Shown one piece after another: positions 1,945 through 52,535 of a DNA stretch of 64,000 bases. The translations under genes were made by a program, and so were the position numbers. This stretch comes from Yuukianura sp. NJ FZ-2021 (lineage: Eukaryota), in NCBI GenBank assembly GCA_046563655.1, contig CM102284.1, forward strand, positions 5,208,001-5,272,000. Reading direction: 5' to 3'. Each line of letters opens with the position of its first letter. The stretch's first letter is position 1. Below the pieces are notes generated by a model that saw nothing but the letters and a program-made list of their open reading frames with translations, made no database searches and had not been told where the DNA came from.

Positions 1945-4900
1945 ATGGAGTCAGCGAAGATGTCTGGACATCGCTGGAAACCGATCAACCGTTTCTGTGC
2001 TACTGTTCTCGTGACTTTTACTCTACTTAATTCAGGTCTTACAGGTGAGATTTTAACACTTTGTTTAAGATTTCTCCAATTCAGATTTAATTTAACACAC
2101 TTTGAAAACGTTCATTGACATTTTCTACTTATTTTCAGCTCCTTCAGATTCAGCAGAGGGTGAGCAATCCACTTCTTTTTTTCTTAAAAAAAAGCTTTTG
2201 AATTTCTAACTCGAACGTAGCAATTAGCAAGCAATAACAAGATGCGTCGTTGCAAATTGGAAAGGAAAGCCAATAATCAATCATCAATCCTGTCCGAAAT
2301 TGAAATTTAATTTTCAAAAGAGCAAACCTAAAATTTAAACAGTTTAAATTTCGAAAATGAATTTGAAAAGTGTTCAATTTCAAAAATTAGTTTAAAAATT
2401 AAGGAAAAGCCTTTGAAAAATTTAATTGCATCCCGATATGTTTCCATTCAGACGACATGCGACACCCTTTGGTTAATTTCCATCTACAGTGAAACTGCCG
2501 AAAAATATGTTCAAAGTTTTTCAAATTCACTTTGTTTCCAAAATTCTGCTTTCACAACTTTCTGAATTGATTTCTTTACCGTTGAAAACTTAATACTGAT
2601 GAAACTTGTCCGATTTATCGGTGGGATTCAAAGATCGGATGAGTTGTAGATTTGCATGAATGATCTGTTGGAAAAAGAGATTTTGAAACTTTCGCCGAAA
2701 ATTTTAAGCGAATTCCGGAATTCACTGAAAAATAAAGTTTCATAAAATTCAGTTAAAAGGAAGGATTCATTACGTAACATAGGTTAGTGTATTCTGACTT
2801 AAATTTTCGGAAAAGAAAAATAGCGCAACATCTGGGAATTTTGATTTTATGTAAGCATTTTTTGATAAGAAGTTTATTTTATGATGCTCTTGCTTGCTTT
2901 TAGGCTTGACACTGAAGTATGAACCTGGAAAAACCTATACCTATGAATACGAGACGACATCGGTGATAAAGCTTTTGGGAACGAGCGATGAGCAAAGTCA
3001 AGTCCAACTCAAAGGTTATGTTCACTTGACCCCTTCGACCAAGAATGACTTTGTTTTGACTCTGGGAGATTTCGTGCTCGATGTCACAAGTCCCAACGAA
3101 AAGGTTATCTGGACACAGAGAGCAATTAATCAAACAATATCAGCAACTTTATGTCACCCACACTTCATGATGCAACTTCTATTTTTAGCTTGCGTCTCCA
3201 GTTTCACCCCTCAAAGGATCTTCATCTCGGTTCACTACAGATGCAGGGGTCATCCAGAACTTTTATGTCAAAGGAGACGAATCTCCCTGGGTAGCCAATT
3301 ATCACAGAGCCATTGTGTCAGCGTTCAACAACTATGCTCTCAAGGACAGTCAGCAAGCGTTTTACTTGGAGGTTAGGAGATTTTGATTTTCTAGAGCCTA
3401 AAAATAACTTGGAATTTGCTCTTGACCGATAATCGATTAGTAAATATGTTTAAAGAAATTGTTTTTCTTTGTAGAATGATATCTCTGGATCCGATTGTCC
3501 AACGGAGTACAAAATCAAGTCTGATGGTTCATTCCACAAGAGCCGTGATTTGAACAAATGTAAAAATCGAGATGGAGGTTACACGGAGCAGTATGGCGTC
3601 CCATACGCGACTGACAGTGATGTAAAAAGAATTGAATTTCAGCTTATCAATTTATAAATTGCTTCGTTTTATACGAATTCAGCTCGTTTTCAAAACTTTT
3701 ACAGATTTATTTTTTATTTTCAGGAACCTACGTCAGATACATCAGTTCGGTCGTCTCAAGAATGCATTCAGAAATACGCCAACGGCCTCCTGACCAACGT
3801 CGACTGCAGCGAAGTTCATCGCGTCACACTTCTTTCCCCTGGAAAAGATACTGGTGGCAACGCCCATGTCACGACAAAGCTCCGGTATCAGAGCATTCTT
3901 GCTGCTTCACCTGTAGGATCAATTCCTTCCAAATTGTCATCAATTCTGTTTGACCACGCTGGAACCGATTTGACGTCACCAGCAGATGCTAATGAAATTA
4001 TCGAAGGTTTGGTTGGCAAACTCTGTCTGTCAACAGGAAACAACGGACGGCTCTCATCCGACACCGCCGCGGTCTTCCTCACGCTCAAAGCCAAGATTCG
4101 ATTTGCTTCTAAACAAGTTTTGGAGGCGGTTTACAACAAGCTCAAGGGCGGAAGGATCTGTGAAGTCAAAGGAGCTGAGCTCAACACATTGGTCAAACTG
4201 TACGTCGATGCGGTTCTAATGGCTGGGTCATCCGAGTCAATTGCCTTCGGAGCTCAACTAGTCAACGAAGGAGTCGTTTCCAAGAACAGCGCCAAAAGAT
4301 TCCGAATCTACACCGCCTTTGCAAACAGACCTGGAGAGGCTGCTCTCAAAAGCGTTTTAAGTCTTCTAGATGGTGTCAAAGATACGGCACGAGCTGGAGG
4401 TCCACTGGACGCCAAGTACCTGTTGACCGCTTCTGGAATCGCATACCAATTCTGCCTTACCTCCAAAACAGACTGTGTTACGAACAAGGCCTACACAAGC
4501 TTGGTCAAGAAGATTGCGGAGCTGACTACGAGCAAATGTCAAGGAGCAACTGACAACGACAAGGCGCAGGATGCCGTAATTGCACTCCAGGCTTTGGGAA
4601 ATCTGAACAAATTGACACCCGAAGCAGTAGACTCTATCAAGACTTGCTTAACAGGACAATCAGAAAGAATCAAACTCCATGCTCTTCAGGCAATTCGCAG
4701 AGATCCTTGTCAACATCCAATCCGATTAGAAGCTCGTAACATTTTGAAAAATTCTGGAAATCCAGCTCACCTTCGAATCTCGGCTTATTTGACCTTGACC
4801 CAATGCTACGCGGCAGAAGACAGCTTTGCAATCAGGTCTTTCATCAAAACTGAAGAATCCATTCAGGGTAATTTAAATGCTTTTTAGGTATAAAATGGTG

Positions 4901-7900
4901 ATGGACAGTTTGTTGTAAAAACACTTTTTATTTCCAGTACTTTCATTTATCAAGTCCCACCGTGAAAATGCTTGGAGTCAAAGTGCTAGAGACAAGGACA
5001 TTGATGGCGACCTTTTCTACGGAGTGAACTTCGACAAGCTGCAAAGCGACATCAGGAAATTTTCATCGTCCTTGGCCTTTTCCGATGACCTTGACGATTA
5101 TTCTGCTAATGTGATTTATTCAGACGATTCTTTTCTACCAAAAATTGTATACTCAAACACCAGCGCAAAATTGTTCGGACAAGATTTCGGTTTACTTGAG
5201 GTATGTTGTTGGTATCAAAATTGAAACTAACGAACAAACTCAATTTTATTTAAATTGTAACTTAATTAATTTCATTTAGTTTGGAGCCCATCTTGGTGGC
5301 TTGGAACAAGATGCCATGGAAAAAGCTTTCGGCGAAAATCCATCTCGATTCTGGGAGGATGCCCGTCGAAGACCAAGAAGACAATCAGGCCTTGGCGGTC
5401 CAACGCTCAACCAAAATGAAATTGACACTTTCCATGCCAAAGTGCGAGTACCGCAACGTAAAACCGTACCCAGCGACATCTATCTCCGAGTTTTCGGTAC
5501 AACAGTCTATGCCACCAGTTTCACCATGGACGACCTCGCTCTCAGAAAGCTTTCACGACAAGATTACTTGACTGACCTTTTTGACCGGGTTCTCAAAGGA
5601 GAAGAAGTTCAATTCACCGAAGCTTATCCACTTTACGGTGATGAGCTAATCATTCCGACCGTGTCTGGCTTATCACTTTGGATTCAAAATGAGGGTGCGG
5701 CCATCTTCTCCCTCAAGTTCTCTTACACCGGCTCCGAAAACATGGTCACCTTTAACCCCAAAATCAGCCCTGGTATCTCCACTGCCAACAACATGAAATT
5801 GACCATTGCAGGAGAAATCATTGAAGCTGGTCTACGAGCAGAAACGACAGCAGCTGCCTCAACAGACATTTCTGTAACTGGGAAACTATCAGCGACTGAT
5901 GATCAGTATGGATGCGAGGTCAGAATTGCAATGCCAGCAAACGAGGTCAAACTTGTTGAATTCTCCAACGAACTCTTCTGGATTCTGCAATCTCGTCATG
6001 TGGACTATGATCTGAAACAGAAAATGACCACGAAGAATTCACCAGTCGTTGATACTGGTGTGCTATGTACCAAATACTTGCAGATTGTCACCGGAATTAA
6101 GAAGTGCTTTCAAGCACAGTTGCCACCAGCCGCCGGGCGTAAAATTCCAAGCTTCCCACTTTCCGGACCTGCCAAAGTCAAACTGACTTTAAGTCCACCG
6201 GCCGGCGCCAGAGAGTTGGTTCTCAAATTTACTGCTTCAAAACCAGGTTCGTCAAGAACCCGAATTTTTCTGAATTAAAACAAAAACGAAAACATTTAAG
6301 TTACTAAATTATTTACGATTTCAGAAGCTGGCGGACTTGTTGCCGAAATTGACGCCCCCGGCGCTACTGAAAACATCAAATCCGTATTCAAAACTAATCT
6401 GGTCACTGAAAGCGGCTACGAAAAATTCACACTTGACCTTGACTCTCCAAAATTGAAGGCGGGTTTTTCATGTGAGAATGTTTTAGAAATCTTACAATTT
6501 TTGAGCATTTTTCAGAAAAAAAAACCTTAACTAAAAATAATTTTGCTTTGTATTTCGTTAGCTTCTCGCGCCGTTGAAATTCCCGGAGTTCGTGATTTGA
6601 CCTTGAAGGTTTATCGAGACGATCAGCACTATTCAGTCAATTTCAAGCGACAGGAATCCGAAGACACGGCGACTCAAGTCGAAAGCAAATCTTATGCCAT
6701 CAGCTACACCTGGCCAAAACAACGAGAAGTAGAGGTGTTCAGCCTTGACATGTCCGAAGCTATTCCCGGGTCAAACAAAATTTACCGCTCACTTGCTGTC
6801 AAAGTCAACGACTTCAGTTTGGGTAATCCAGAGGTGAAGCCCTTCGTTGCCTATTCTGGTAAGTATCCAATTCGGCAATTGTTTGACTTAATTTAATAAC
6901 AAGAGAAGTAGTTCTGACATTTCGGCTTTTTTTTTAGTGGTGTTCGATGGAACTATGGGAAATACCCCGGGTCAAGTCCTGAATGCCAACAGTCAGCTAT
7001 CACTCTATGGAAAAAAAGTATTCTCATTCAAAGGATCCGGAAAGACGTTGACAGAAACGACGGTATATCTTGACTTGGATGGAACTATCAACATTGCGGG
7101 TAAAGATGAAGACATTAACATCAAAGGAGAACTTTCTGGATTGGGCGTAGGAGGACAACCAACAAAGAAGGGATTCAAAGGAACGACGAAGTCTGTCTCT
7201 CGTCCAGTGCTAAATGGCGACATCGAAGTTTCTGTCGACAAACCAGAACCAAATTTATGGAAAAACATCTTCATTATCAAATCACCCAAATTTGAGCTGA
7301 GTGTTGCGGAAAATATTGACATGAGAGATGGCAAATTTAAAATCAATTATGACGGAAAAGGTAACTAAAATCCTATTTACTGTTTAACTTTTTCTGGCAT
7401 GGGTTTTCAAAACTTATATGTATGGATTCTTTTTTAGTAATCTGCCAAGAATTGCAAATCAACAAGGAAAAGAAGTACGACGTTGAATTTACACCGGAGA
7501 AAGTTCTAGTCGACTTCAGATACGCTTCAGATAAAAAAACTGTAGCTGACATCAAATTCAACTTGAATCGACTTACTAAGGCTTACGATACTGAAATTTT
7601 GGTAATTTTTTCTAAATCTTTTGCCATTGATTGAACTGAATTTTCAGACAATTATATTTGTTTTACTGTTTTTTTTTAGTTTTTCATCTCAGGCAAGAAA
7701 AATTTGTTCAAATCCAAGAACACCCAGACTGGCGACCGTCTCGTTTTTGAGCACAGTGCTGAAGTTGAAGGAAAGTTTACTGGATCAGTTAAGACTGAAA
7801 TTTTCGACTCCAAGGATAACGAAGGAAGCTGGAAAAACCGAGAAACAACGCTCACAAGCGACGCTTTTCCAGATGCTTACGCGTGAGTCAAGATAACCTA

Positions 7901-10900
7901 CAAACTTGTAAATTTTTTAAAGAGAAATGCTTCTAAGACAAACTTTCTTTTTCTAAACAGCTTCAAGGTCAAATACAATGTGGATGCCATCTTCCTCAAA
8001 GCCATTCGTGGATCACAAGAGATGGCCGCATTCAGCGTTTCAAACAAAGTTGACCAAGATTGGACACACAACTGTCTGATTGACATTTCAGCTGAGAAGC
8101 TTATCGTAGCCAGTGTTGGAGTCAGGTGTAATTCAAAGCAAGAACGAGTTGAAATCGTCAGTTCAGTGACACAACCACCACACACTGGGCCACAACGTGT
8201 TGCCAAATTGGTACTTGTCGGAAAGGGAGCGAATGATCAGGCAGGAGAAAAAACTTTTGGAGTTTCGTTTGATCTCAAAATGGATGCTGGCAAAGACCCA
8301 CAAAGTACTTTTGCTCTGACGAATAACAACAAATGGAAGCAATCGTCTGGAGGGTTTGCTCTGGATTCCACGTAAGTGAAACGTCTTTCGCACTTTATTT
8401 GAAAACCTGAAAAATTTTTAAACAAAAAAATTGCTTCCTCTTCCGTTTAGCAATGCGATTGTCGTGAAAGGAAAAAGTCGCACGGCAAACTTCAAGGTCA
8501 ATGGAGAACAACAACCAGAGGCTCAGACATTGTCTTTGACCTTTGACCATGTCAGTCCGGATGGAAAAGCTGACAAGTTGGAAGTTTCAGCACTACATGA
8601 ATACCCACATGGAAAAGTCATGGGCACCCTAAAGTTTGAAGGATTTGGCGAAGGAGGAACACTTCAAGTCGGACTCCAAAATATAAATGCTGTACACAAC
8701 GTTGGGGACTTTGTTGCAAAATACACATGTCTCAAGAAGGGAAAGATTTTTGACATTTCAGTCTCCACACAGAAAAGTGCAACTGGACGAACCTTTTCAT
8801 CTTCCATCAGTGGATTTGGACAGGTCATTGAAGGTGGAATTCAACAAGACGTTTCTGTTGAAACTGGAGCAGGAAAGCACAAGATTAACTTTCTTGGAAA
8901 ATATGCCAAGAGAGCCATTTATTTGAATGCCAATCTCGAAAAAATCAAGGGAACTACGCTCAAGAAAATCATTTTTGATTTGGATTTTGATCGAAATTAT
9001 CAAAAAGAAAACGGAGCTGCACTCACCACCAAAACTACTTTCGCATACCGTTACAACACCGTTTCCGATTTTGAGGTATATTTTTTGAAACCTTTATTTT
9101 TTATGAAACCTTTATATTAAAACATAGATTTTAATTACGTTTCTTTTATCTTTTAGTTACAATCAACCGGACAATACGAATTGAAACGTGACGGCAAGTT
9201 TGTGCACAGCTTCAGTCGCAATGTCAAAGCCAGTCCAGGAAGCCTAAACGTTGAATCCAAAAGCACGTTTCAATATGGCGACAACGCACCAGAGAAGAGC
9301 GAACTGAAACTGAATTTGGAAAATTCCGATAAAAAGGTGGTCGTCGTTGTCGACTTGGAGAGCAAAGTCCTTGCCCTGATCAGCGGTAACGAAAACGTCC
9401 AACCACGAATTGACTTTGATTTTGAAACGACGAAGAACATCGATGACCTTCAATTCCTCTTGTCACTCAAATTGCCAACTGACAAATTCCAATCCGGATC
9501 GCTGAACATCAAACGTACAGTTGCAGGAGCTACTAGAACTTCAAAAGTAACTGGAAAATTGAACCAAGAACAAGTCGATATCGAAGCCAGCGTGTACCTA
9601 ACTGAGGCCAAGAAAACTGCTGACATTTCCTTGAAACTCAACAACGAAACACCCAAGAAACTTAGTCTCAAATACGATACTGCTGGGGGAGTAAGTGTGC
9701 TTGGAGTTTGTTTGAACCGTCTTAGCTGGTAACCGACAAAACTAATTAATTTGCATTTTTATAGCATGTAGCGGAGGCGACATACAAATGGGGAGACAAT
9801 GGACAAGTTCTGACATCCAAGGGGTCCATGACAAAAGACGCCAATGATGGTTTCACAGCTAAATTTGAATTCGACGTTCCAGCGATGAACCAGCAATGGA
9901 ATCTGGAAGTTGCTCGACAAGTGACAGCTACCAAGAAGAGCACCTCGTTTGTCGCAACAAGTACACGCAGTAAACAACACATCAAGTAAGAAGCGATGTG
10001 AATCTTTTTAGTGATATCAATGGTTTCGATTTTTTAACCCGTTCATTATGTCATGTTTAGATTCACCGGAACGCAAGAACACACCCAGAAATCCGCGTAC
10101 AGTGGCTCACTCAACATTGATTTGGCAGCGCCCAATGACAAATACGATTTTGATGGAACGCTTCAACTTGTTCTTGACAAGTCACAACCAGCTAAAAGTC
10201 TTTTATTCAAATTGGATTACGTTGTTGGAGAAGACAAGCGAAGTCGATCAGTAGCACTTGACACTGCTGTTTCACCTGATGAGAAACACATTATCGCAAA
10301 ACTGAGTCTGACTCCAGAAAATACGTTCCAACTCAAATCAACTTTGAAGACGCAAGAATTGGAAAATTCATTTGAATTTTCACTCACAAATCCAAGTCAT
10401 GGTCTGGATGCAACTGCTTCTGCTGGACTAACTCTTTCCGCTGACCGTAAAACAAGATTGACCTCTGTCAAGTACTCGCTGGCTCATTCTTCGCTCAAGA
10501 GCAAAAAGGAGCTTGGAATTTCTTTGTACAAAAAACCTGGAACTGGAAATGATCTCGAAGTAACCAAGTCTGAGGTAGTATATTATTTTCAAAAAATGGA
10601 AAAGTTGAAAAAATATTTTCAGGTTTCTAATTTGTATTACTCATCTGAATTTTCAGATCTCTTCAGCACCTTCTACAGTTTCCACAAGAGGATTCGAGTT
10701 GACCTTGCCAGAACGAACTTACGGTGCTCACATCGTCCACGCTGACTGGAGTGACGCAGATGCCAGGGCAGGAGAGCTCAACCTTTGGTTCGACAAGAAA
10801 GCAGCACCAAATCAGAAGTTGACGATTGGATACGCGTGTTCCAAGCCAAGCGTCGAAGAAGAACAGGGTGGAGACTTTGCTTTTATTATTCGACACCACA

Positions 10901-13900
10901 AATTGCAGAAAGTAAGTTCGCCTTTTTACTTTCATGAAATCATTTCTCGAAATCTAAATTGTAATTTTTCCGCAGGATTTGAGAATCAAAAGCAGATACC
11001 GCTACAACGCCAGCAGCAGCAAAATTTTTGAAGCACGAACTGACCTTGATGTTTTCAAACGAGCAGAAGACAAACTTTCGTTCAAAGTCGAGTTAAACCA
11101 TGACGTCAACTCCGACAATTACACCTTTGTTCACGGACTTTACTCTGATGTATGATGTCAATTTATAGATTCTTCAACCAAGCAAATTACATCTGCAATA
11201 ATGTCGGTAATTTTTTATTTCGAAAAATAGGGTCTAGGAATGGTGATGGAATCAAGATGCGAGGGAATTACCATCGACTTTCCAAGGTACACTTCGATTT
11301 GCACAATCACGCACAAGCATCCAAACATTGCCCCCATCAAGTACAAAGCCGTAACGAACATTTACGTTCGTGAAGGATACGAAGTCAAGTCGCTGTTTCA
11401 GGTACATTAGACGCATCTCTGACCACTCCAATTTTTGACTTCGAAAATTTGACCTTTTTTTCTGATTTGTTAGGTTTACAATGGAGATGAGAGGATCTTC
11501 CATTTTAAACGTTCTGTCGATCTTAGCGATGAGTCACAAATTTCTGTCCGATCACAGTTGCAACTTCCAGGGATGACTGATATTCGAAACATCAATGCCC
11601 GATTGGTACGAAAGCCATTCCGATTAAGCTTGTCAACAAATCCATCTTCATCGAAGGATGTCACTGGATTCTGGATTGGGGCCACTAGCGTTCAAGGCGG
11701 TGGTTTCGGACTTTCACGAACTGATGAAGCTGGAGAAAAGAAAGATCTGGTTGCGTTCAGTGCTAACGTACAATCGAAGAAATTGAAAATTGATTTTGAT
11801 TGGAGCAAAGAAAACATTGCTGCTTATTTGGTAAGTTTTTCCAACCCCAACTACTTTAATACATAATCGTAACTTTTTGAGAGCTTATGCTAAAAAATAA
11901 AATTAATTTTCAGGCTTATTTGGTAAGACGTGGACTAGAAATTGAAAAATCAGCAGTCAAGACTTGTGACCAGGTTAACAAACAAGAATGGGAAGCTCGG
12001 CAATCATTCCGGAAGACCCTCAGAGCAGCATCTCAAGATTTCGAACCAATTTTGCAGTGGTATGAAACTCAGTTGACCCAAATCGGCAGCAAGTACGGTG
12101 CAGAACCTGTCAAATTCCGTGAGTTTTGAAGCTCCTGCAAAGTCTCAGTTAACGTAGTAAGCATTAATTTATAGTAATATAATTACTTTGCAATTTTTGC
12201 AGCACGTGGAAGCATTCTGCGAGACGAAGCTGCTCCTGGACCAAGCCGTTTCGTTGCGAAACTAAAGGCTGCCAACAAATGTCTTCAGGAAAACGCTGAT
12301 TCCATCAATGCGTTTCTGGATTCCATTTCCAAAAAACCAACACTTCCAACTCCCGAAGCAGTGAAAGGTAATTAGTAAAAAGCTCTAATTCCAAGCTAAT
12401 TCGAAGTGAGATTTTGTTAATTTTTTCGTATCTAATTCCTTTCAGAGCGATCAAAGGCAGTTCGTGAATTTGTTGAACGGGTTGCGGGCAAAATCCGAAA
12501 AGTCCTCGGAGAAACAAAAGAACTAAAAGAAAAATTCCCGATTTTGAAAAAACCAGCTAAGAAATTGCGAGAGAAAGTTGTCGCCAAGTTGCAAGCGGTT
12601 GTTGATGAGATCAGTGACGACTTGAACGAAATGTACCCATACGCAGAAGTTAGTCATTTTCTGGAACATTTCCGTAATTACTTTGAAACTGCTCTTCTGG
12701 AACCCGAGAAAATTTCTGCGGAAGACAAGACCGAAATGCTCGGAGATGTTGAGAAGGCCGTAGAGAAGATTCTGTCCAAAACGTACTCCATCAATTTTGC
12801 TGAAGGTCGCATCCGGGCTGAGGTAAAACTTGAGTTCTAGACGTGAAAAATCTAAGGTTTCAATATTTTCAACTGCAATTCAAAAACAAAAAAAAAAACA
12901 CGTTTTAGATTCCACTTTTGAGCAAATTGGGATCACACCAAGGGAGATATGGAGCAGATCATTTTGGAAAAGCCAATTCTGAATGTGTCAAGGAACTCTA
13001 TGACAGTCCAAGGTCAATTCTTCCACCAGTTAACGGTATATCCTGAACCTCATCTTTTCAAACTTCCTAAATTTATTCCCGTTTCCCGGAATTTTATGAG
13101 AATATTTGTGTAACCGACTTTCAGCAACGGCATTCATCGTCGGAAGCAGCAACTACGTAACTTTCGATGGAACGGAAGGAGCTTTCGATAAATTGTGTCC
13201 ATTCATCTTGGCGTCTGATTTTGTCAACAAGAAGTTCACCGTCGCCCTTAATCTTGAGGGAAGTCAAGACACCTATGGACTCTACTCTACTCTCTTTGTC
13301 ACTGATCACAAAACTACCGTTGGAATTCAACGTGGACTCATGCAGGTATTCATATCATCATTCAAAACGTTTGACAACTATTTTAATTTTTGAAATTTTG
13401 AAATTGTATCTTGGACCCACGCTCTTTTTTCTTGACCTAGGTTTCGATCAATGGGAAGAGTTCTCGAGTTGAAGACACTCCAGTTCGCTCTGGAGCTTTC
13501 GTTGTGTACAGAGACGCGTCTTTCGTAATCGTTGAAGGAGACATGGGAATTACAGTTGGATGTAGTGATGCTTTTGGAGTGTGCGCTGTTCAAGTTAGTG
13601 GATTTTACCATGGAAAATTGCAAGGAGTCCTTGGCAAGTACAATAACAATCCCTACGATGACTTGACTTTGCCTACTGGACAGGTACTTCAGAAATTCAA
13701 AATGGTGTCACGCTTTTTAGAAAATCCAGTTTAACTAAATTTTTGATTTTTAGCTATCCACCAACGACGCATCCTTCCAAGCGAGCTGGAAGTTGAACTC
13801 CCAGTGTGGCGGAAGAGTATCAACATTGGGATTGGGTGATACTGCTGCGGTGCTTCCTGGATTGTACAAGTCACTGAAGCAAAAGAGCCTGGACATTGAC

Positions 13901-14050
13901 AACTTTTTCTCCAGGTCATCCAGCGCTCCGTACAAAGCGTTTTACCAAAAATACGCTGCTGTCGCCAGCGCTCCATCTGCGTCACCACTCACATTCATTT
14001 CAATCCTATTTAGCACTCTTCTTGCTCTAATATTGGCACGACTCAACTAA
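1945..14050 (+). CDS. LLTP-A: multi-exon apolipophorin/apoLTP-like large lipid transfer protein (Vitellogenin_N/LLT domain, long beta-rich middle, amphipathic helical region, vWD domain, hydrophobic C-terminal tail)
   Basis: ATG at 1945 opens a signal-peptide-like exon (MESAKMSGHRWKPINRFCATVLVTFTLLNSGLT). A 21-nt exon at 2139-2159 follows, then LKYEPGKTYTYEYET from 2904. LLT motifs: SPWVANYHRAIVS, NDISGSDCPTEY..HKSRDLNKC, IALQALGN, LRISAYLTL, IPTVSGLSL. Furin-type site RRRPRR at 5364-5381. vWD motifs YVTFDG..CPFILASDF and GFYHGKLQGVLGKYNNNPYDD. The junctions I checked splice in frame by GT-AG; not every internal junction was checked. Stop TAA 14048-14050; AATAAA at 14180. Confidence 0.9.
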
Positions 14051-14229
14051 AAAATGTACATAAGCACTTAGCTCTGTTCTTTAATCACAACCAAACCGTA
14101 ATAATTTTAAGTTAGTTGTAAATTAACTTAAAATACTACAGAAATTAGGAATAACTATGAAGACTTATCTTTATACACTAATAAAAGTCACCGCTAACCT
14201 GCCTCGTGTGAAAGAATCAGCCAAAGTTT

Positions 14230-15680: not shown

Positions 15681-15915
15681 AAATTCATAGATTAGATTTA
15701 AAAAAACAAAGTAAATTAAATATTCGTTTATTTAATGCAGATTCAATGCTAAATTCTTAAAATAACCACTCAGATTTTTATGAAAGGTGGAACTGAGTAG
15801 AGGGAGCTAAATTAAATTAAGTTCTAAACAATTAATCAGATTTAGACATCACAATTAACCAAGTCAATTCTCAATCCTTTGATGTAAAATAGAAAAACGA
15901 TTTTAGCGTCAAAAC

Positions 15916-18900
15916 TCAACGGCTGACGCATTGTTCTGAGTCTTCGATAGGAGCTCCGGAGAGGTTACAAATCGCTTGGTACGCAGTCGCTGATGTACAA
16001 ACGGCTCGATTCGCGTCAAATCCCTTTTCTCGTGACAAAGATTCACACGTCCATTTATATCCCACTGGAGATTCAACGCTGAAACATGGCCTGCAATTTT
16101 CAAGAAAACTTTTTAGAAAAAGTTGGCATTTCGGAGTGAGTTTTTTCAAAAATTTTGATTGTTTAGTCATAAATTACTTGAGTCGTGATGATGATCCGTT
16201 GAAGGCATTTGAGCATTTTAGTTCAACAGTTGAATCAATTTTTCCAGAATGAACTGGTAGCGGCTTCTCTTGACATTGACCAAGTTTCCAGCCAGTTGCC
16301 ATTTCTTCCACAGAATTTACAATCTGCAGAAAAATAAATAAGTTTTTAAGTGCATTTGAGTAAAAGTTTTTCCAACTAGAATTTAGAATTCACGAAAACA
16401 TTTTGAACACACCTCTCCGTTTGGCGAGTTCATGTCATCAAATTCTTCATGATTGTAAGTTCCCAGAAGTCCGTTAGTTTTTCCTTGGTAAAATCCGGAA
16501 ATTTTGAAAACACAAACATCTTGAAGGGTGGAGCAAGCGACGGAAAATCCTGCTGGACCACGAGCAATTATCCAATTGTTTTGTTTTTCAACTTTCAATT
16601 CTCCTACTGATGCTGGAACTGCTGTTGCTTCACCATTCAGCAAAACCTACAACAAAATTTAAACAAAGAATTAGTTTGATTAATTAAAAGCGTGATCGAT
16701 TGCTGTGTCTTACGGTATGATCCGATTTGATCGTAATGTCATTTTTCAGATCCGTCAAAGTAATTGATTTCTTGACCTCAGCGGTACTACTTTCACTGTA
16801 GTCGACGACAATTGTGAAATTGTTATCAACAAAGTCCGAAGCTAGTATGTACTGGCACTTGCCCTCAAAATGGAAGAATTTGTTGTCAAAAGTTTTGTAG
16901 TATTGGGATCCCATCAGAACAGCTTTTCCTAGAAACAGCAACAACAAAAATATTTATTTATTCGCCAAGAACCTTTTCCGACTTTAATTTGTAGCTTCCG
17001 TAAGATTCTTTAAAAATGTTTTTTAAAAAAATTAATTTCGACACCAGTTAAAAAGTCTACACCTCAAAGCACGTATAAAAATCAAATTCGAATATTTTTG
17101 ACCAGGTTAAAATTAATTAATGATTTGTACGGGGACGAAACTTTAATAACTAATTAACCTCCGTAGATTCTATAAAAATGTTTTTAAAAAAATTAATTTT
17201 TGTGTAATTTCGACACCAGTTAAAAATTCTACACCTCATTTTTGAGTAGCTAAAAGTAATTAATGATTTGTACGGCGTCGAACTTATGCAACAAAAAAAA
17301 TTTTTTTTAAATTCCTTTTTGTTTTCAAACGAAATCTAACTTGAGTCTCAACTTATTTTTACGAGCCTACTGGCCCTACTGTGGCCATTTTGATATTAAG
17401 AACGAAGGTGAAGTTGCAATTAACATTAAATGCTCACCTCTAGCAACTCAAAAAAAAAACCAACAGCAACAAAAATCAGCGATTTCAAGTAGTACTCAAG
17501 CGATTCCTTACCCTTGAACGGCGGAAGAATGTCTCTAAGGCTATAATTCGGTGCTTTGAGTTGGTTGTAGAGGTCGCGGAGGCTGTAAGTGTGTGCTGGC
17601 GTTTGGAAACTGTACGATGCTGCAGCCTTTGTAAATGAAACGCCAAAGTCCGTCAAAGATTTGATGGGCAGCGGTAGCGGTACCTTCAAAGAAAATCAAA
17701 CTTTAGACAAAAGTTTGCCTTATTTTCATGAAAATTTTGATGTTTTTGAAAACTTACCCGAGCAATAATGAGACCATTGCTCAAATCAATCGTGAACAAA
17801 TTTGCTTTCATTTTCTCAACAGCCTTGACAAACTTGTCATAAATTTCAGTTTGTGCTGCAGTGTCGTTTGTCACTTCCTGTTTGGCTCTCTTCTCCACAT
17901 ACTGAACTATACTGAGCATGAACTCTTGGTACTCACGGTCAGGAAATGCAGTCAGAATGGAGTCTCGCATGGCTTCTAAATCTCTTTGGTATTCCCCTAG
18001 CGTAATCTTCGCAAGTTGTTGGTACTTGTCCTTGTAGTACTGAACGTAGTTTTTAACAAAACTGGATTCTGAAAATACTTCCATCTTCGATTCCAATGTT
18101 TTCCAAACCGATGACATTGCTTGAAGAGCCTGAACTAGCGTCTCCTTAAAAAATTTCCCAATTCCTGAAACAAAATTTGAAAAATTGAAAACAAAATCAA
18201 ATTTTAAAATCTAAAAGTTCCATTCAGAATTTACCTTCAGAAGTATTTGACAAAAACGTGAAAGAACTTCCAGCTACGTATGATTCAGAAAGTCGATTGA
18301 ACATCCCGTAGACTCGTTTCAGAGTTTTCCTGGAAGTTTCAGCAAAATATTGAATCGTTTTGTGGACTCCTTTTTGAATCGCTTCTCCCATTTTGGGAAC
18401 TCCATCAATCGCTGATTTGATCAAATCTGGTATAGCATCTAGTGAATTAATCGCAACTGCCGCTTGAGCCTCGGCCCACTCAACAGCGTTTTGAAATCCC
18501 TTCTGTAGTTCTTGCATGTCTGTTCCAACAACATTTAGGAAAAATTCGACGTAAGCACGGATGTAAGGATTCAAAATTTTGGCATCTTTAACTTCGTCGC
18601 TGATATCTTCAAATTCATTTTTGTAGTATGTCGTAACAGGTTTGAAACCTGGAAGCGCTTTGGTAATTGTGTCGCCAACATGGTCTGATTCCGACTTAAC
18701 CTTCTCCCAAGCTTCGTAGTTTTTCCGCTTGAATTGAATTGCAAGGTCAGTAAGTTTTTGGGAAGTTTTTTCCTGAAATCATAATTTCCGACGTCAACAA
18801 TTTGTTGTCCAATCACGAAATGAATTTGATTTCTTACCAAGCTGGATTTGATGTCATCCTCCTCCCAAGTTGATTTGACAAAAAGAAGACGTGTGTTATT

Positions 18901-21900
18901 CAAAGCAATATTGACGTCAGCGATGGTCCTACGCTGATTTCCTGAATTCGTATACACTCCAGCAACAAACTCTTGATCACTCTTGAATCCAACCCAAGCT
19001 TCATAGGAATCTGAACTCTGATTGGTGTACAATTTGGCATGAGCGCTTTGTGGAAATGAGCTGGAAACGCTTCGCTCAATAATCAGGGAGTTGTCCATTC
19101 CAGGGACCAAAATTTCTCGACGTATAACGGAACTGTCGTATTCATATGTTCTTTGACTCGAAATCAAAAGCTTTAGGCCCTCCGGTGCTAGAAACTGAAA
19201 TAAGATACAAAAAATTACTTTGTATTTTCAAAAAAAAATCTCCTTTTTTTCCAAAAAATGTTGCATTTTTTAAACTAGAATTTTGACGAACCTCAATTTT
19301 TTGGTGGTCTTCTACATAATCTAAATTCAACTGGTAGTTTTTCATTTTCTGAACACTGTTCAAATAGTTGAACGTTGTCTGTGACGAGTGTTCACCTCGG
19401 GTCATGTCAATGTCACTGTGAGCGTTGAATGTTAGTAAGCCCTGAAAGAAGAACAATTTCAAAAGTCAGTTCCAGTAGTTTTAAAATTTATGATTAACTA
19501 AATTGCGAAAGTAATTAATTAATTAACAGAAGTGCTAATTATTTTGCTAAAAACCTTTGGTTCACAGGAATGACCTGAGCAGTTTTCATAGCTACAGCTA
19601 GACGCCATATAAAAATTAATTAAGTTCATTCATACTTTTCAAGCCTAAAATAACAGTACGAAAATGGAAACTTTTTTACACGGCGTAGAAATTATTTGTT
19701 CAGCAACAAAATAAACGCTGAAATGCAAATATAAATTAGATCCTCACTGTTCGAATTTCAAGAATTTGATTATCCGATGATTTAAAATTCAAAAACTAGT
19801 GAATCCCGTGAATTTTTTTTTGAAAACACACTTTGAAACCAAGGTAAATAGAATACTTATAGGTACGGTCGTTGAAAATTGTTTTTTCAAAACTGAGTTG
19901 CTATGGGATTTGTTTGACTCCGAGTTCACTCATTTACAGTGTTGTTCAAAATTTTCAGCATTTTAGTCTTAATACTTTCGCCGCAAACTTAAAAATAGCT
20001 TAAAAACTCGGATGAACCTGTATTTTCACTCGGAGTGACGTCACTGTGAGTGAAATTGTAAACAAATAAAGAATCGGTTTTGGTCGCTAAGGCATTTTTG
20101 CCGCCCCCTGCTTTGAAACTGTGCTTTTTGCAAAATTTTTGCACCAAATTCTGCGAAACTCTGTTCTGCAACTACAACAGTTCGATGGAGTTGAAGAAAT
20201 CGCAAGAAAGTTGAAATTTGTGACATGGCAAAAACTTCGGGTTTTGGAAATCGTTTTGAGATTTTCAACAAGATTTTCTTTGAATTAGTACCTCCAGTCC
20301 GACATCTACTGCGTAGTTGTCAAGCGTCGAGTTCTTGACCTTAAAAATGACAGTTAGCGGTTCCTTGCCAGATCTAAAAATGTCCAGAACGGTATTCGTG
20401 TCGTAGATGTATCCCTCGCTGTTCTTAATTCGAGAGATCACCTTGAATTCCTGGATATATAAAGGAGGGGAACAAACTTTAGAAAAACATCAATCTTTTC
20501 AAAATTTAAATATCAGTTGTAACCTTTGCAAGCGTTGGGAGTTTAAGTGAAAAAGTGCGCAACTCCTGGTTGTCAGAAACTATAGACAACGTCAACTTTT
20601 CCGACGGTTTTCGGAAGCGATCCAACCAAACTTCCACAAGCTCCTCTGTTGAGAGTTGTCCCTCCTTCCGGGTAGCCAAAATTCCAACTTCTCTATCCGG
20701 TAAGTAGATTTCCAGACCAGTTTCAGGGTCTCCAATTTCACGATTTCTGAACAGTTTGAACCCAACAGGCTGATGTTCACCGTGATCCGATTCTCCATCA
20801 TCGCTAACTATTCTAGCAGAGTATTCTTTGTAAGTGCTCATCATCCTCGCAGTGTTGTATTTGTCCAAGTTCTTAATGATGAGTCCATCAGAAAGCGATT
20901 TTCCTTCAGTAGTTGAATTGATTCTAATTATCAGTTCGTCACCACTCATTCCGGAAGTTCCACGTGCATCCATCTTCGTATGCTTGACTTCAAACTGTCT
21001 ACATTCCTGGTCATCCTTTGAACAAAATAGACTTAGAACCTCAAAGCCGCCGACTACGTTGTGACCTTTGACTGGCTTGTAGCTGAGGTCAGCTCTGACA
21101 CAATCCTTGTCTCGAGTAGAACAAAATTTGGTTTCGTAAAAGTCTTGATCCGTAGTTCGTTTTCCAGCAATGACAAAGGTCAAGGGATACTCCTCACTCT
21201 TCAGTTGCAAAGTCAAGGTGATTCCGCGTCCATCTTCAGAATTGCGATGCATTTGGTAAGTTTTGTCTTCTAATTGAAAAGTTCCACCCCAGGCAGCGTC
21301 TGCTCCCAATTTAATTGTTGCTGAGCCGTCGATGTTGGACAGGAAGGGGGTGATTTTCTTGACGTACTCAAGCCTAAGAAAATTGGAACTTTTAATCTTC
21401 TAGTCCAAAAAATCTTGGAATAATAATTCCCTAAGAGAATTTTTTTTTTTTTGGTCTTACACGACAAATCCTTGTTCCTCTTGAGCACTGAGAACATGAA
21501 ACGCAAGAATGTTTCCTCCGCTAGGTGTCGCTGTTTGAGAAACCTGGATTGTCCAATTGTCAATCTTGTTCACTGGACTGTGAATGGTCAGGTCACCGCC
21601 TAAGATTGAATCTGTCCGAAGCAAATTTCCAGTTGTAGAGATGAACTTGTCTCCTCCCCAGGACATCACTGACTCAACAGTGTAGTTGTTCTAAAAATAC
21701 GAAAAGTTAAGAAAACAATAAAAAAAAAATTACAAGAATGAAAATACATTTCTTCTGTTTAATATCTTACCGTATTGAGTCCTCCCAAACTAAATGTGAC
21801 TCGCTTAACTCCGACCTTGTCAGTGAAAGCCAAAATAATTCCTTTCTTGGCATTGGTCAAATCAACTTTACTGGATAGCGTCACCGTTTCATTGTTCAGA

Positions 21901-24900
21901 GTTCCCTGGATGCTCGTGGTGTACCCTTGCCCTTGACGACCTCTTGGTTTGTGGCGTAGAAAGAGTTCGAGGTGATCATATCCAGTGATTGTCGTATTCA
22001 TAGCGTAGTCGAATACAACAGTATTGTAATTTCTGTCAGTGTCCAAAAGGAACTTCGTTTCAGCTTTTCCACGAAAGGTTCCATGGCCCTTGAAAGTAAG
22101 CTTCTTGTCTCCAAAGAGTCCTTTGCCGCTATAAGTGATCAGAGGTTGTCCATTTGGATAAATGTTGTAACGAGAATGAAAGTTGGTTTTCAGATAGGAA
22201 ACTCCAATGTCCCATGTCGTCGGAGCAGCATTGTTGATTGACACGTTTCCGATGCTGGAATACTGCAAATACAAAGAAATTCAATCATTGCAGGATTACA
22301 ACTTACTTTAGTTTATAAATCATTTTCAGTACCTCGTAATTGTCTGATTTTGAATAAATGTAGCCCATTTTATACGTTGCGTCAATGTTATTCAGCTTCT
22401 CAAACGGCGTATTGAGCTTGTATTTTATGTCCAGCGTGGACTTGGGTGACCAATTGTCATATTGGAGTTCCAGCTCACAGTTGCCACTCTTCGTTCCATA
22501 AGCTACATTGCCAGCGTTTTTGATATTTCCAGCTTGTACTTCCGATTTGAAGTCGACATGGAGGGGATTGCTCAGAGCACTTCCGGTGGCATTGACCTGA
22601 AACACAAAAGTTAAGTAAAGTGTCGTCTGTTCATTTCAATTTTCAAGGGAAGGAGAAAATTCTGGAAATCTTACCAGTGCTGTAGTTGTTCGTTTGTTGG
22701 TGACGATAGACCCGACATCAGCTTTAAGTCGAAATGCTTCACTTCCATGATAGGCTACCCTGATATCAGAAGTGTGCTCAAAAGCATAGTTGGAAATGTT
22801 CATGTTTACAGTTCGTTGTGAAATGTCAAGCTGAAAAGGTTGTTGGTTCGGAAGATTCAAAACGGCACTTTGGACAATTAAGAAACTTCTATCGGAAGCT
22901 TCGCTGAAATCTTTCAGTTGAACAGCATATACTTGTCCAACTTGGCCTGTATAGGTGGCGTTTACAGAAAGATCTCGCTTCGGATTGTATCCTGAGTTGG
23001 ATTTCAAATCAAAATCAAATCCATGTTGTGATCCCATCCAAATAAATGTGTTTCTGTAAAAATCAAAAAAAAAAAATTTAAAAAAATTGAGATTTTAATT
23101 ATTTTTTTTTATCGATTACCGTAATTCCAGGAGAGATGATTGTCTCGTCTTCGAATTTTTTACAGCACTGCTCAATGTCATAGATTTGTTGGGGTCAGTA
23201 GCGTTCCATTGAACAGTTCCGTCATATTTAAACGTTTCCTCTTCTTTCCTTAGATTCGACGACGCCTCAATTCTACGTCCAGTTGGAATCCAAGTAGCTG
23301 ACACTTTGACGTTACTTGCAACAATTTGACCACGACCGTGATTTTCTTCAAGACGTGCATCCAAGTAATTCTGGACGAAGATCGTGGACGTAAAGTTTGA
23401 CGGAATTTTGTCAAAACCGCGGCGGTAGTCGGAAGCCAAGTTGAAAACGTCTTCACCAGTTGCTTTGCTTAGGATCAAATGTGTGTGGTAATTGTCCTTC
23501 CTACTAACTACGTTTGAGATCAGCCTAAATTTCATAAAAAATAGTTTGTCAAAAATATATAAAAACTAACTAAAAGTTAAAAATTCAAGCACAAATACCT
23601 CAAAGGCGTAGCTAAAGCCGAGCTACGGATATTGGAATTAAGTTCAGTGTGGATGTCATCGTTGACATTGTTGAGAACCAGTTCTGTGTCAGCATCGAAC
23701 GTAAATGGACTTTTTCCTTCAGGCGCACTGCTAATTGACGAAATGTATTTCCATTTCTTGGGACTCAATTTGAGACAGGTTTCGCTAAATTTTAGTGCTT
23801 GTCCAGGAAAGGTCACCTGTAAGAGGTCACAGAAGGTCAAACGAAGGTGAAATCATGGAACTGAGAGTTTTTACGGTTTAATGTTACCCCAACACTACGG
23901 GAACTTACGTTTCCATTGATGTCATAACTAGAAAGGTCACCGTCAACACCAGTTGCCTGGTATTTGACAAGAGCAGAAATGTCAGAGCCCATCCGCAGTT
24001 GAAAGTCGCCAAGCTGTTCCTGGTTACCATTCGTGGCATCGGCCTTCAAAGTCCAGTCATATCCTCCCTTTGGATATTTCACTGAAATTATGTCAAAATT
24101 TTTGTAATTTTCATTAAAAAAAATTGTGAAACTGTAAAATTATTCTTACATTCAGCCACATTTCGAATGTTGAATTGTTTGCTAGATTCGAAACTGATAT
24201 TCGAAGACTGAAATAATCGAAACTTCGAATCTGTATCCATTCCTCGTTCAAACAAGAAAGTCTTTTCCATTCCATTGACAGTTTCGACACTGTCATATTT
24301 GAGGTCAAAGTTCGCAAAGGTACGACGAGAAGATGAGACGGATAGTGCGAATTTGTTGGCCTTTGGCATCGGTTTGCTCAATTCCGTGTCAATAACAAGT
24401 TCATGCTGAAATTGTTCTCCATACTTCGCAGTGGCGTTCAATGCTTTTCGCGTTTCCTTGAAATCAGCTGTACCGTCCATACTCAACTTTCCAAACATGG
24501 CGCTGTCCAACTTGACGTCCCTGAAGGTGTAATCGGCGTTCTTCGAATCAATTCTATTTCGATTCAGCGTTCCAGAAATGTTTGTTCGGAACTCTGCACT
24601 CAAAGCCTCGTTGATTTTGAGGTCAAAGTCTAGTTGTTTTCCGGAATTTTTGACAATTTGTCCCTTCAAAAACGTTCCGGAGACTGATGGAAACGTGAAA
24701 GCCACCAAAGGTTCGTAGGTTTTAGTATTGGCGCGGGTATTGTCAGTCATTTTGAGAGTAGCTCCAGCCGAGTAGACTGTGTTTCCACGGACGTACTTCA
24801 TTTCATACCCCTTGATGCTGTCTTCGTCCCATCTTTGATCTGTTCAAATTGTTGATTTTTTCAAAATAAGTTCGAAAACTTTCAAAAAAGGATGTTTTTG

Positions 24901-27900
24901 ACTTACATTCAATTCTCAAATGATCTCCGGGCAGGGTAACGTCCAGGTCAAGTTTTGGTGATTGGCCCATAACATAATGTCCGTCAGCTTTGATTAGTCT
25001 ATTCGTTTTTGATCCAGGCGTGTCGAAGACAAAAGAAATGTTCTTCTCAGTGTCACCTTCAAAAACAAGAAAGTTAGAAAATCCGAAGTCAAAAATTAGT
25101 TAGCAATTAGATAATTGAAGAGAATTTTCCAAAAAGAACTTACTTTGCAAGAGTGTCTGAATTTTGAAGTGGTAACCCTCCATCGATGCCTCAGTTTTTT
25201 CAATTGAAAATCCTAGCAAAGAGTCGCCAGCCATCGGGAAGCTTGGTGCTTTCGGAGCAGCATATTCCGGAACTTGAAATTGAGCACAAAGACGGAGACC
25301 AATTTTGGACGACTCAGTACAAAATGGAGTTGATGTTCGTTTAGAAGCAAATCTGGACACCAAAGGAGTTTCCGTGAGCATAAAATTTTCAGCTTCTGTC
25401 CAAACCAATTGAGTCCGCATGCTCAAAACTTGAACTTTGTCTTCCGGAAGATTCAGTTTGACTTCAAACTTCCCATCTTCATTGGCAATTCCAATGTCCA
25501 TGCCCGTAGCTGAATGAAGTTTGCCTTCCAGTTGAAGTCCTGATTCGATCGGTCCTGCGCCGACACTCATTTTCGCCCTATTTTTTTTAAACAGATCAGT
25601 TTTCATAATTCTTTAAAAAATAATTAGCGTATAATACCTTATTAGCGTTGCAGCGCTAGGCACAAAGCGGAGTTTCGTATCGGTGTTAGTATCCCTGTTG
25701 TATAAGGCTCGAATATCCACTTTTCCGTTCATCTCCAGTGACAGAACAGTAGTTCCCTCAATTTCAAAGTTTAGCGGTAGACCAGATGCAGTTGGAACGA
25801 CAAATTCGTCGTCCAAGAATGTAATCGGTTCAGTAAGTTTGATGTTGTGATCTTTGGCTCCTTCCAGAAGTTGATCAAAGACTGAGTACAGTTTACCTCG
25901 ACGAAAATTTTCTCGTAGATTGTCTTGGCTAAATGATGCTGTGTAAACTGTAGTGTCTAGAACTCGAGCGTAGAAGTCACCAAGACCGCTGGAAGCAAAG
26001 TTGTCTTTGATTCGTGTAGCTTCTGACAATTTCTTTTCAACTGCGTTTCGATTAACTGGAGAAGTTGCGACGCTTCGTTTCGATCTGGAACCAGCGTCAA
26101 AAGATCTTGCCATGAACCTTCCAGCGGCTCGTTCCAGCATATGTTCAAATTTTTCAGCGTACATGCCAACCTGTGAAATTATTCTTGGATTTAGAAAATT
26201 GTGAAGAGGCAGATCAAAATATTAAAATGTTGCAAGTTTCTTTTACCTCCAAAAAGTTATAAGATCTTCCAAACAGTTGAGCGTCCAATTTACATGAAAC
26301 GGACCGTGGAATGTAAGAGTCTTGAGAAAAGACCACGTTAGATTCAGCGTCGAATCCGGTGTTAGTAGTTGCGCTGAAAGTGGAGTAGCCAAGATTTGTT
26401 GAAAATTTTCTAGGATCGCTTGGAAACTTTTTCGGTAGCGACAGTTGTTTCATGGCAAGTCGAATTTCGCGTTTCACTGGATTTGGACTCGCCACGATAT
26501 TTGCCACATGAGAGGAAATGAAAGAGCCAACTGCAAAAAGAAAATAGGTTGACCTTTGACCTTGTAAACAAAAGTTTTAGTATTAGAGAATCTAACTCAC
26601 CTTGGTTTGACTGTTCCGAATTCAAAATAGCTTGAAGTCTTCGAACATCTTGTTCTTTGAAACATCGACTTATGGCCAAATAACTTTGAATTCTCAATTC
26701 CGAACTGACCTTGATGTCTTTTAAGATTCCATAAGCTGTTTCCTTCAGTTGACTTTGGCAAGGATCTCTTCGGAAAGCCTGAAGAGCAGCCATTTTCATC
26801 CGATTGGTTGATTTCATACATTCCGTGATGTTCCCAACGGCCTCTGGTGTCAAGCTGTCCAAGTTTCCAAGTGCCTGGAGTGCGTGAACTCCTAAGTTAA
26901 TGGCCGTGTCCTCTTCGCCCATGCAACTCTCTCTTCCAATTTGACTTATGGCGTTGACCATGTCCAGGTAAGCTCTATTCGTTCCACAGTTTGGATTTGT
27001 TTCGACGCAGTAGCGATGACCTAGAGCTGATGCAGTCAGGAGTAACTGTGGGTCAATTTCAGTCGTGCGCAGAAGCGTCGTGAAGGCTGACAGAGCTGCG
27101 ATGTCCGGTCGCGGAGCAAAACTTCCGTAGACACTGAAAACGCCTACGGTAAACGGATCCACTCTTCCTTTGCCAATTAGGGTCGCCATAAATTCAATTG
27201 ATTCTGTTGTTCCAGCTTTTGCAACAGTGTTAACAAAAATCGTGGCTGCAGCGTTCGAGCATTGTGAATCGCTAGTAATCGTTCTGTAAATTGCTATAAG
27301 GTCAGCTGGATCTCTAATGGCTCTGATTGTTTTTCGGAGTGAATTGATAACTCCAGGAACAACGGCTGTTACAGTTCCAGTTCTCGTTTGCATACAAAGA
27401 TCCGTTAAAAGAAGTTTGGTGTTTTGTACTGCCAGATTTGCTGCAATTCCACCGACGTCTGTTTTGGAATGATCGAATAAAATGGTTGTAGGATTTTTGG
27501 CCTGGGAAGTACTAATTGTTGACTTCTCAGTTGAGCTTGGATTGTAGGTCAAAGACGTCGAAACCGTTGAAATGGCGTCACTACTTTTTTCGTCTGCCAC
27601 GAACAGAAGGGAGTGCGTTTCCGTACAAGTGACGCTTGTGATTATTTTCTGATTGTTCAGAGTCTGCTGACAGGTTTGACTAGAGTTGAACACTGGAATT
27701 GAGTTTTGTTCCTGAAAAGATCGAAGCGTATTCAGTTTTTAAGAATTTCTTCAAAAATTTTAGAATTTGCATCAAATTTTGAAACTTGTAACCTACCGAT
27801 GCGACCTTATAAGGTGTCCCTTGAAGAATCCAAATTCCGCCATCACGAGAGGTGCAGCTCTGTAGTGCCTTGGTCTTGACAAAGACGTTACCAGAGACGG

Positions 27901-52100: not shown

Positions 52101-52535
52101 GTTCAAAACGAAGTGACGCAGGAGAGTCGCTTGGCCATTTGGAGCAAAGACGCGTGTATTGACAAGTATCGCTTCTTCATTCCTGACACGCACTTTGATG
52201 ATGAAGACATGATCTGTGCCCAAACGAGAACTGACATTCCGAAAAGCCAAAAAGCTCTGGCCAATCCGGTACCGCAGACGCAGGTCAACAAATTTTGCAA
52301 CATGTATTTAAAAAAAGAAATGAGCGTTTACTTTTACTTTCACCGTTTCTTTTCAAAATTGTTTTAGGAAGTTGAAACAGACGGAAGTCCGTTGATTGTG
52401 AAAGGTCAAACTGGAATTTACCAACAAATTGGCATTAGTTCCTGGAAACTGGGATCAATATCTAACTTTCCTCTGGTTCTCACGAGAGTTAGCGCCTATC
52501 GTCACTGGATTGAAAAGAATCGTCTGAGACCATAA
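49197..52535 (+). CDS. Clip-domain serine protease homolog with a very long Pro/Thr/Ser-rich linker
   Basis: Signal peptide MWSLVLKVSLVLGVTLTSTVVS; RVKR; clip CYTVLGDQGYCTTFNECFP..GPC..ICCP; roughly 400-aa mucin-like linker; CG..YPWV; LTSAAC (His to Ala); HDIALL; ETDGSPL in place of GDSGGPL; TRVSAYRHWI. TAA 52533-52535. Confidence 0.85.

Follow-up and report, generated by a model that had tools for sequence, protein, structure and literature searches.

Known members of the apolipophorin-II/I group of LLTPs are secreted, circulating lipoproteins, and in mammals a cell-surface platform for lipoprotein processing is provided by GPIHBP1, a glycosylphosphatidylinositol (GPI)-anchored, small Ly6-fold protein that is unrelated to LLTPs. 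In published reports, insect apolipophorin-II/I and its crustacean relatives are described as proteins of ~3,000 amino acids (aa) with an LpD-N domain, a DUF1943-type sheet, DUF1081, one furin site and a C-terminal VWD domain (PMC8545670), GPI-anchored proteins are said to travel on lipophorin-like particles, in whose phospholipid monolayer they sit (PMC10216265), and Drosophila lipophorin receptors to bring LTP to the plasma membrane, mediating lipid uptake (PMC4486166). Here we describe LLTP-A, a gene in a 64,000-nucleotide (nt) window of the genome of Yuukianura sp. NJ FZ-2021 (GCA_046563655.1, contig CM102284.1, positions 5,208,001-5,272,000 of the forward strand; all coordinates are relative to this window), which encodes a protein of the apolipophorin-II/I type with a C-terminus that fits the layout of a GPI-attachment signal. 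This C-terminus is real and unusual. The window is eukaryotic in character, with short GT..AG introns and a G+C content of ~38-42%.

The LLTP-A gene spans 1945-14050 on the plus strand and has 28 exons encoding about 2,995 aa, a predicted exon 1 included. The splice-aware model, which was built with donor and acceptor position weight matrices (PWMs) and a codon table, both trained on LLTP-A itself, comprises 27 exons (2906-14050, ~2,994 aa, introns of 64-114 nt), all of which have open frames. Its features upstream of the last intron are as follows.

1945..2044, plus strand: predicted exon 1, with an ATG at 1945 or 1960 and the signal-peptide-like start M(ESAKM)SGHRWKPINRFCATVLVTFTLLNSGLT
2904..13683, plus strand: exons 2-27, from Pfam and the splice-aware dynamic-programming model, ~2,900 aa
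2904-3103 and 3724-4867, plus strand: Vitellogenin_N (Pfam)
5280-6246, plus strand: Vit_open_b-sht and a weak DUF1081 (Pfam)
5370..5381, plus strand: furin motif RPRR, model residue 676
13125-13345 and 13441-13683, plus strand: VWD, in two exon halves (Pfam)

The original prediction had taken LLTP-A for an apolipophorin-like LLTP, and its domain content bore this out. Pfam was run on single-exon open reading frames (ORFs). Vitellogenin_N/LpD-N was matched by two ORFs (3658-4887, 96.9 bits; 2885-3376, 32.2 bits; cut-off 24) and Vit_open_b-sht, formerly DUF1943, by ORF 5280-6278 (52.9 bits; cut-off 23.7), and the two halves of VWD scored 22.3 bits (profile positions 3-76, just below the cut-off of 22.9) and 30.6 bits (profile positions 93-156). 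DUF1081, a marker of the apoB/apoLp branch, stayed sub-threshold at 17.2 bits (cut-off 25) over profile positions 7-60 of 112; the match sits at the end of an exon, where an intron interrupts the domain. RPRR is the sole R-x-[KR]-R motif in the ~2,994-aa model. Since Vitellogenin_N, the open sheet, the weak DUF1081, the single furin motif, VWD and the overall size all occur together, LLTP-A has the layout of an apolipophorin-II/I. It matches the insect protein in its predicted signal-peptide-like start, LpD-N, open beta-sheet, weak DUF1081, single furin motif, VWD and length of ~3,000 aa, but differs from it in having, in place of a cysteine-rich end after VWD, a candidate GPI-type signal.

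A second LLTP gene in the window, LLTP-B, serves as the nearest comparison.

15916..29724, minus strand: LLTP-B, a ~2,950-aa model with Vitellogenin_N, Vit_open_b-sht, a weak DUF1081, VWD, a cysteine-rich end of ~90 aa and no hydrophobic tail
26075-26086, minus strand: furin motif RSKR of LLTP-B, residue 650, the sole such motif in that model

LLTP-B is arranged tail-to-tail with LLTP-A, its stop codon (15916-15918, minus strand) lying 1.9 kb from that of LLTP-A. It carries the same Pfam domains (112.6, 77.7, 20.3 for DUF1081, 36.7 and 34.0 bits), and the two proteins are 26-38% identical in six blocks alignable by tblastn, with RPRR of LLTP-A and RSKR of LLTP-B in one alignment column. A scan for an ATG followed by a hydrophobic core and a phase-1 donor yielded exon 1 of LLTP-A, whose phase-1 end reads ..GLT G|GTGAG (donor 9.3 bits); exon 1 of LLTP-B (29724-29637, minus strand) closes alike, at ..LVLT G|GTACG, also in phase 1. 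The candidate exon 1 of LLTP-A thus appears signal-peptide-like and mirrors that of LLTP-B in phase and ending. Judged by their sequences, LLTP-A and LLTP-B are ordinary diverged paralogues, alike in architecture, in the ending and phase of exon 1, in the position of the last intron and in the aligned furin motif. They are unlike at the C-terminus, where LLTP-B has its ~90-residue cysteine-rich end and no hydrophobic tail. The most hydrophobic 17-residue segment anywhere in LLTP-B has a mean Kyte-Doolittle hydropathy of 1.32, versus 2.50 for the tail of LLTP-A.

The 3' end of LLTP-A is made up of the following features.

13684..13753, plus strand: last intron, 70 nt, phase 0, CAG|GTACTT...TTTTTAG|CT, at the same position as in LLTP-B
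13754..13807, plus strand: LSTNDASFQASWKLNSQC, with which the last exon opens, paralogous to IVNSVEEMATGWKLGQC of LLTP-B
13808..13954, plus strand: cysteine-free spacer GGRVSTLGLGDTAAVLPGLYKSLKQKSLDIDNFFSRSSSAPYKAFYQKY, 49 residues, taking the place of the cysteine-rich end of LLTP-B
13955..13987, plus strand: small-residue stretch AAVASAPSASP, with A69, A71 and S75 as admissible omega sites
13988..14038, plus strand: hydrophobic tail LTFISILFSTLLALILA, 17 residues
14039..14050, plus strand: RLN and the TAA stop, from the translation
14180..14185, plus strand: AATAAA, 130 nt past the stop, a candidate polyadenylation signal

The last exon (13754-14047, followed by TAA at 14048-14050) encodes 98 residues, which read LSTNDASFQASWKLNSQC GGRVSTLGLGDTAAVLPGLYKSLKQKSLDIDNFFSRSSSAPYKAFYQKY AAVASAPSASP LTFISILFSTLLALILA RLN. 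Retranslation reproduced the sequence first quoted for it, together with the in-frame splice after VWD that had been claimed (PTGQ|LSTNDAS; the upstream exon ends at 13683, giving the model junction 13683/13754). The shared junction with LLTP-B also held: the intron lies at the same position and in the same phase in both genes (PTGQ|LSTN.. in LLTP-A, PNGE|IVNS.., that is PNGE|IVNSVEEMATGWKLGQC, in LLTP-B), and after it both encode W-K-L-x-(x)-Q-C, which is WKLNSQC in LLTP-A. The last-intron donor and acceptor scored 8.4 and 12.4 bits, versus model medians of 7.4 and 8.9. A donor at 13704, which would make the intron 49 nt long, was rejected; both the PWM/codon model and homology with LLTP-B favour 13683, and the frame of the tail is the same either way.

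Codon usage in the terminal exon is like that of coding sequence up to the stop. The exon as a whole scored 0.223 per codon in frame, where the other two frames gave -0.262 and -0.285, and its parts scored alike, the spacer (13811-13960) at 0.277 and the last 29 codons at 0.233, with off-frame scores of about -0.26 to -0.39. LLTP-A exons outside the codon training scored 0.15-0.47 per codon, a range that includes the terminal exon. The controls were 283 ORFs from other parts of the window, each 60 aa or longer, a set in which the true exons of other genes are included; two of them reached the score of the exon and four that of the tail. Downstream, in 14051-15900, the plus strand has no ORF of 40 aa or more with a codon score above 0.025; the 191-codon ORF 14198-14773, tried as an alternative last exon, was discarded with a codon score of -0.247 and an overlap with an intergenic repeat. 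When the C-terminus of LLTP-B was compared by tblastn with the LLTP-A tail and the sequence downstream of it, no similarity and no relic was found in any frame, and the tail was accordingly rejected as a frameshifted remnant of the cysteine-rich end. Because of its codon score, its strong splice sites, the intron shared with LLTP-B, the AATAAA and the lack of a coding-like exon downstream, we take the terminal exon to be genuinely coding, and very probably it is where the coding sequence of this apolipophorin-type LLTP truly ends.

What follows WKLNSQC sets the two paralogues apart. LLTP-B has seven cysteines in its last 90 residues and LLTP-A none beyond the cysteine of that motif, so that the spacer is cysteine-free, as first described. 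Pfam found no match in the tail-exon ORF of LLTP-A (13754-14050). The end of LLTP-B had been called cysteine-rich and C8-like; the first half of that description stood, and the second is fair but not established, the Pfam C8 match on the last ORF being sub-threshold (15.3 bits, E 0.025, with the cut-off at 23.7).

A GPI signal consists of small residues at the omega site, a short polar spacer and a C-terminal hydrophobic stretch of ~12-20 residues. We formulated this as a rule in which omega is S, N, D, G, A or C, omega+1 is neither P nor W, and omega+2 is A, G, S or T; the spacer has 4-12 residues and is not hydrophobic; and the tail is uncharged, 12-24 residues long, with a mean Kyte-Doolittle hydropathy of at least 1.9, and ends no more than 4 residues from the C-terminus. 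Three residues of the terminal exon are admissible omega sites: A69 (followed by V and A; spacer of 7), A71 (S and A; spacer of 5) and S75 (A and S; spacer of 1). A69 and A71 pass the full rule and S75 the residue rule only. Counted back from the C-terminus of LLTP-A, A71 is residue 28, which agrees with the candidate site originally placed about 28 residues from the end, and the 17-residue hydrophobic tail likewise proved to be followed by RLN only, leaving almost no cytoplasmic tail. That tail is uncharged and the most hydrophobic 17-residue segment of LLTP-A, the next best reaching a mean of 1.76. A hydrophobic C-terminal run of this kind was found in 2 of the 334 ORFs of the window (stop-to-stop, at least 60 aa), and just one of the 334, the LLTP-A terminal exon, passed the whole rule; LLTP-B fails it. 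The last ~30 residues of LLTP-A therefore have every GPI-signal feature that we tested for and fit the layout as this uncalibrated rule defines it; coupled with the candidate signal-peptide-like exon 1, they give the usual composition of a GPI-anchored protein. No other account explains the C-terminus as well as GPI anchoring, which we hold at about even confidence.

Several points, given here and in the next two paragraphs beside the alternatives they favour, weigh against GPI anchoring. The rule is a crude heuristic of our own, drawn from general knowledge and uncalibrated on known GPI proteins; the splice PWMs and the codon table were trained on LLTP-A, so that the last-intron acceptor lies inside the training set; and exon 1, which would bring the protein into the secretory route, is solely inferred. 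In addition, a 17-residue run with a mean hydropathy of 2.50 falls in the membrane-spanning range and, with an arginine next to it, could serve as a short transmembrane helix. The hydrophobic end might then be retained, either as a short single-pass type I anchor whose RLN end faces the cytosol or as a helix embedded in the lipids of the lipoprotein particle, and the family assignment, which makes LLTP-A one of a group of lipid-binding scaffolds, is compatible with the latter. We regard such an uncleaved helix as unlikely: 17 residues is short for a plasma-membrane helix, and small residues 5-10 positions upstream together with a near-absent cytosolic tail make up the GPI pattern.

Transcript evidence came from one metatranscriptome run, which held a fraction of 0.09 of the query words and whose contigs were aligned to 2500-17500. 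Four contigs match LLTP-A at 95-100% identity, spanning parts of 7038-7281, 10741-11028, 11322-11614 and 12656-12968, and three of them bridge introns, all GT..AG (10912-10975, 11402-11473 and 12823-12908). The contig junctions fall at 10911/10976, 11399/11472 and 12820/12907, the last two being offset by 2 from the model and equally valid. Since contigs of this identity bridge three introns and all modelled exons are open, LLTP-A is a live gene whose internal exons are expressed. The contigs differ from the window at single bases in LLTP-A exons (7101, 10784, 11554 and 12719), each in one low-depth contig; these may be strain differences or errors. None of the four contigs from this single run covers the terminal-exon region (13021-14523), which is not evidence against the exon. 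The same gap, together with four GT sites of 4.0-6.5 bits within the terminal exon that would permit a tail-skipping isoform, leaves room for a 3' end that is mis-modelled or belongs to a minor isoform, with the main transcript encoding a soluble apolipophorin-like protein. We think this improbable in view of the intron position conserved with LLTP-B, the strong donor and acceptor, coding-like codon usage as far as the stop, the AATAAA 130 nt beyond it, and a downstream sequence that holds neither a coding-like ORF nor a cysteine-rich relic.

Homologous proteins were sought with word-seeded searches, for which full-length LLTPs (~3,000 aa) lay beyond the length ranges covered. The tail exon drew 555 candidates (173-2000 aa), none at E<=0.01; the 409-aa Vitellogenin_N exon had 8,000 candidates scored (717-2045 aa), none at E<=1e-5; and among 56 candidates (143-2000 aa) for the last VWD exon no homologue was found. 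When 1.84 billion representatives were searched with the tail exon by phmmer, one match came back, P0002, which we rejected as a relative of the tail; it is a 1,017-aa protein of 11 repeats that aligns with query residues 4-25 only. In the ESM Atlas the N-terminal exon hit generic Vitellogenin_N clusters and the tail gave no usable match, and a PDB sequence search with the 409-aa exon returned 0 matches. That phmmer found no protein sharing the tail among the 1.84 billion representatives counts against a GPI signal, although it says little, other exons being matchless too: because exons that surely belong to a conserved family also drew a blank, the missing tail matches are uninformative, and the databases as searched contain no close relative.

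The lack of a database homologue, and of any detectable similarity to the LLTP-B C-terminus beyond WKL..QC, would also be expected of a young, lineage-specific accident, in which the cysteine-rich end was lost and the frame now reads formerly non-coding, T-rich DNA with no selected function, the protein being secreted, degraded or retained. The hydrophobic residues of the tail are indeed carried by T-rich codons; such sequence readily encodes Leu, Phe and Ile, and a young, unselected tail is conceivable. We give this account a low probability, however. The codon scores of the spacer and the last 29 codons match those of real exons and are reached by few control ORFs, small residues, spacer and tail are combined in that single ORF among the 334, and the frame stays open for 80 codons past the conserved cysteine.

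A search of the open-access literature (subscription journals and supplementary files being outside its scope) found no GPI- or membrane-anchored LLTP; the original prediction likewise knew of no described GPI-anchored one. In the available text of PMC9265791 and PMC10665701 'GPI' concerns other proteins, and neither 'GPI' nor 'transmembrane' occurs in a study on a pair of salmon-louse apolipoproteins (PMC8545670).

If the C-terminus is a GPI signal, LLTP-A would be an expressed apolipophorin-II/I-type lipoprotein precursor with a signal peptide, a lipid-binding N-terminal module, a furin site and VWD, in the last coding exon of which a cysteine-rich end, kept by LLTP-B, has been lost and a GPI-attachment-type signal stands in its place. 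The precursor would enter the endoplasmic reticulum, where it may be lipidated like other apoB-family proteins, and a furin cut at RPRR would yield chains of ~675 and ~2,300 aa. The 17-residue hydrophobic tail would keep the C-terminus at the endoplasmic reticulum's luminal face until GPI transamidase cleaved within AAVASAPSAS, at A69, A71 or S75, and linked a GPI lipid to the large, apoLp-I-like chain; LLTP-A would then be held by a lipid tether instead of being free.

Two sites are conceivable for such a tether, the outer face of the plasma membrane and the phospholipid monolayer of LLTP-A's own particle, and sequence cannot discriminate between them. The plasma membrane is the default location of GPI proteins. 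Anchoring in its own particle is also possible since GPI-anchored proteins have been reported in the monolayer of lipophorin-like particles; the shared feature would be a GPI lipid in a lipoprotein monolayer, with the difference that there the GPI protein is a passenger, whereas in LLTP-A the scaffold apolipoprotein itself would carry the anchor. The claim that LLTP-A is anchored at the cell surface is accordingly upheld in part: the GPI-type layout and the signal-peptide-like exon 1 fit it, but the particle monolayer is another admissible site. Drosophila apoLTP is an LLTP-family lipoprotein that works at the cell surface, as a tethered LLTP-A would, but it gets there by receptor binding and not through a covalent anchor of the kind proposed here (PMC4486166). 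With GPIHBP1, for its part, the analogy is functional only. Taken as a whole, the proposal that an apolipophorin-type scaffold is covalently GPI-lipidated, to act as a stationary cell-surface platform for lipid loading or unloading or to be pinned as an apolipoprotein in the monolayer of its own particle, is one that we hold tentatively, at slightly short of even confidence.

The original prediction had further cast LLTP-A as a docking or unloading partner of the soluble LLTP-B. We rejected this proposal, the adjacency of the two genes being its sole basis.

The model of LLTP-B has four long introns (285, 223, 850 and 583 nt, versus 65-130 nt elsewhere in the gene); several exons are probably missing from it, so that the full length of LLTP-B likely exceeds 2,950 aa. 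Two direct copies of a ~240-nt element (14286-14521 and 15192-15436), 83-85% identical and ~910 nt apart, lie in the 1.9-kb interval that separates the 3' ends of the two genes and give rise to long ORFs of non-coding appearance; the element may be a small repeat or a transposon remnant.

Elsewhere in the window, five ORFs with Pfam Trypsin matches (36-66.5 bits) point to several trypsin-like serine protease genes in its right half.

45696-46142, minus strand: Trypsin ORF
48154-48600, plus strand: Trypsin ORF
51876-52364, plus strand: Trypsin ORF
59827-60390, plus strand: Trypsin ORF
61589-62047, plus strand: Trypsin ORF
49603-51441, plus strand: longest ORF of the window, 613 codons, no Pfam match
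54268-54807, minus strand: Calpain_III match, 27.3 bits
33300-35120, minus strand: ankyrin-repeat exon (Ank_4, 41.3 bits)

The longest ORF lies just upstream of a trypsin-domain ORF. Its product has a cysteine-containing N-terminal part, after which comes a long stretch rich in Pro, Thr and Ser, and it may form the linker in a modular serine protease. The Calpain_III and ankyrin-repeat matches belong to unrelated neighbour genes.

Apolipophorins, apoB, vitellogenins and LTP have been regarded as shuttles in soluble form; by what mechanism they are recruited to cell surfaces, there to load and unload lipid, is an open question. If LLTP-A is anchored as proposed, it would be a built-in counterpart of receptor-mediated LTP recruitment or else a self-pinned particle, in either case an undescribed form of LLTP tethering, and the cysteine-rich end after VWD would be exchangeable for a membrane-attachment signal. 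An LLTP with its own lipid anchor would then offer a natural, genetically defined and directly testable tethered scaffold for lipid transfer.

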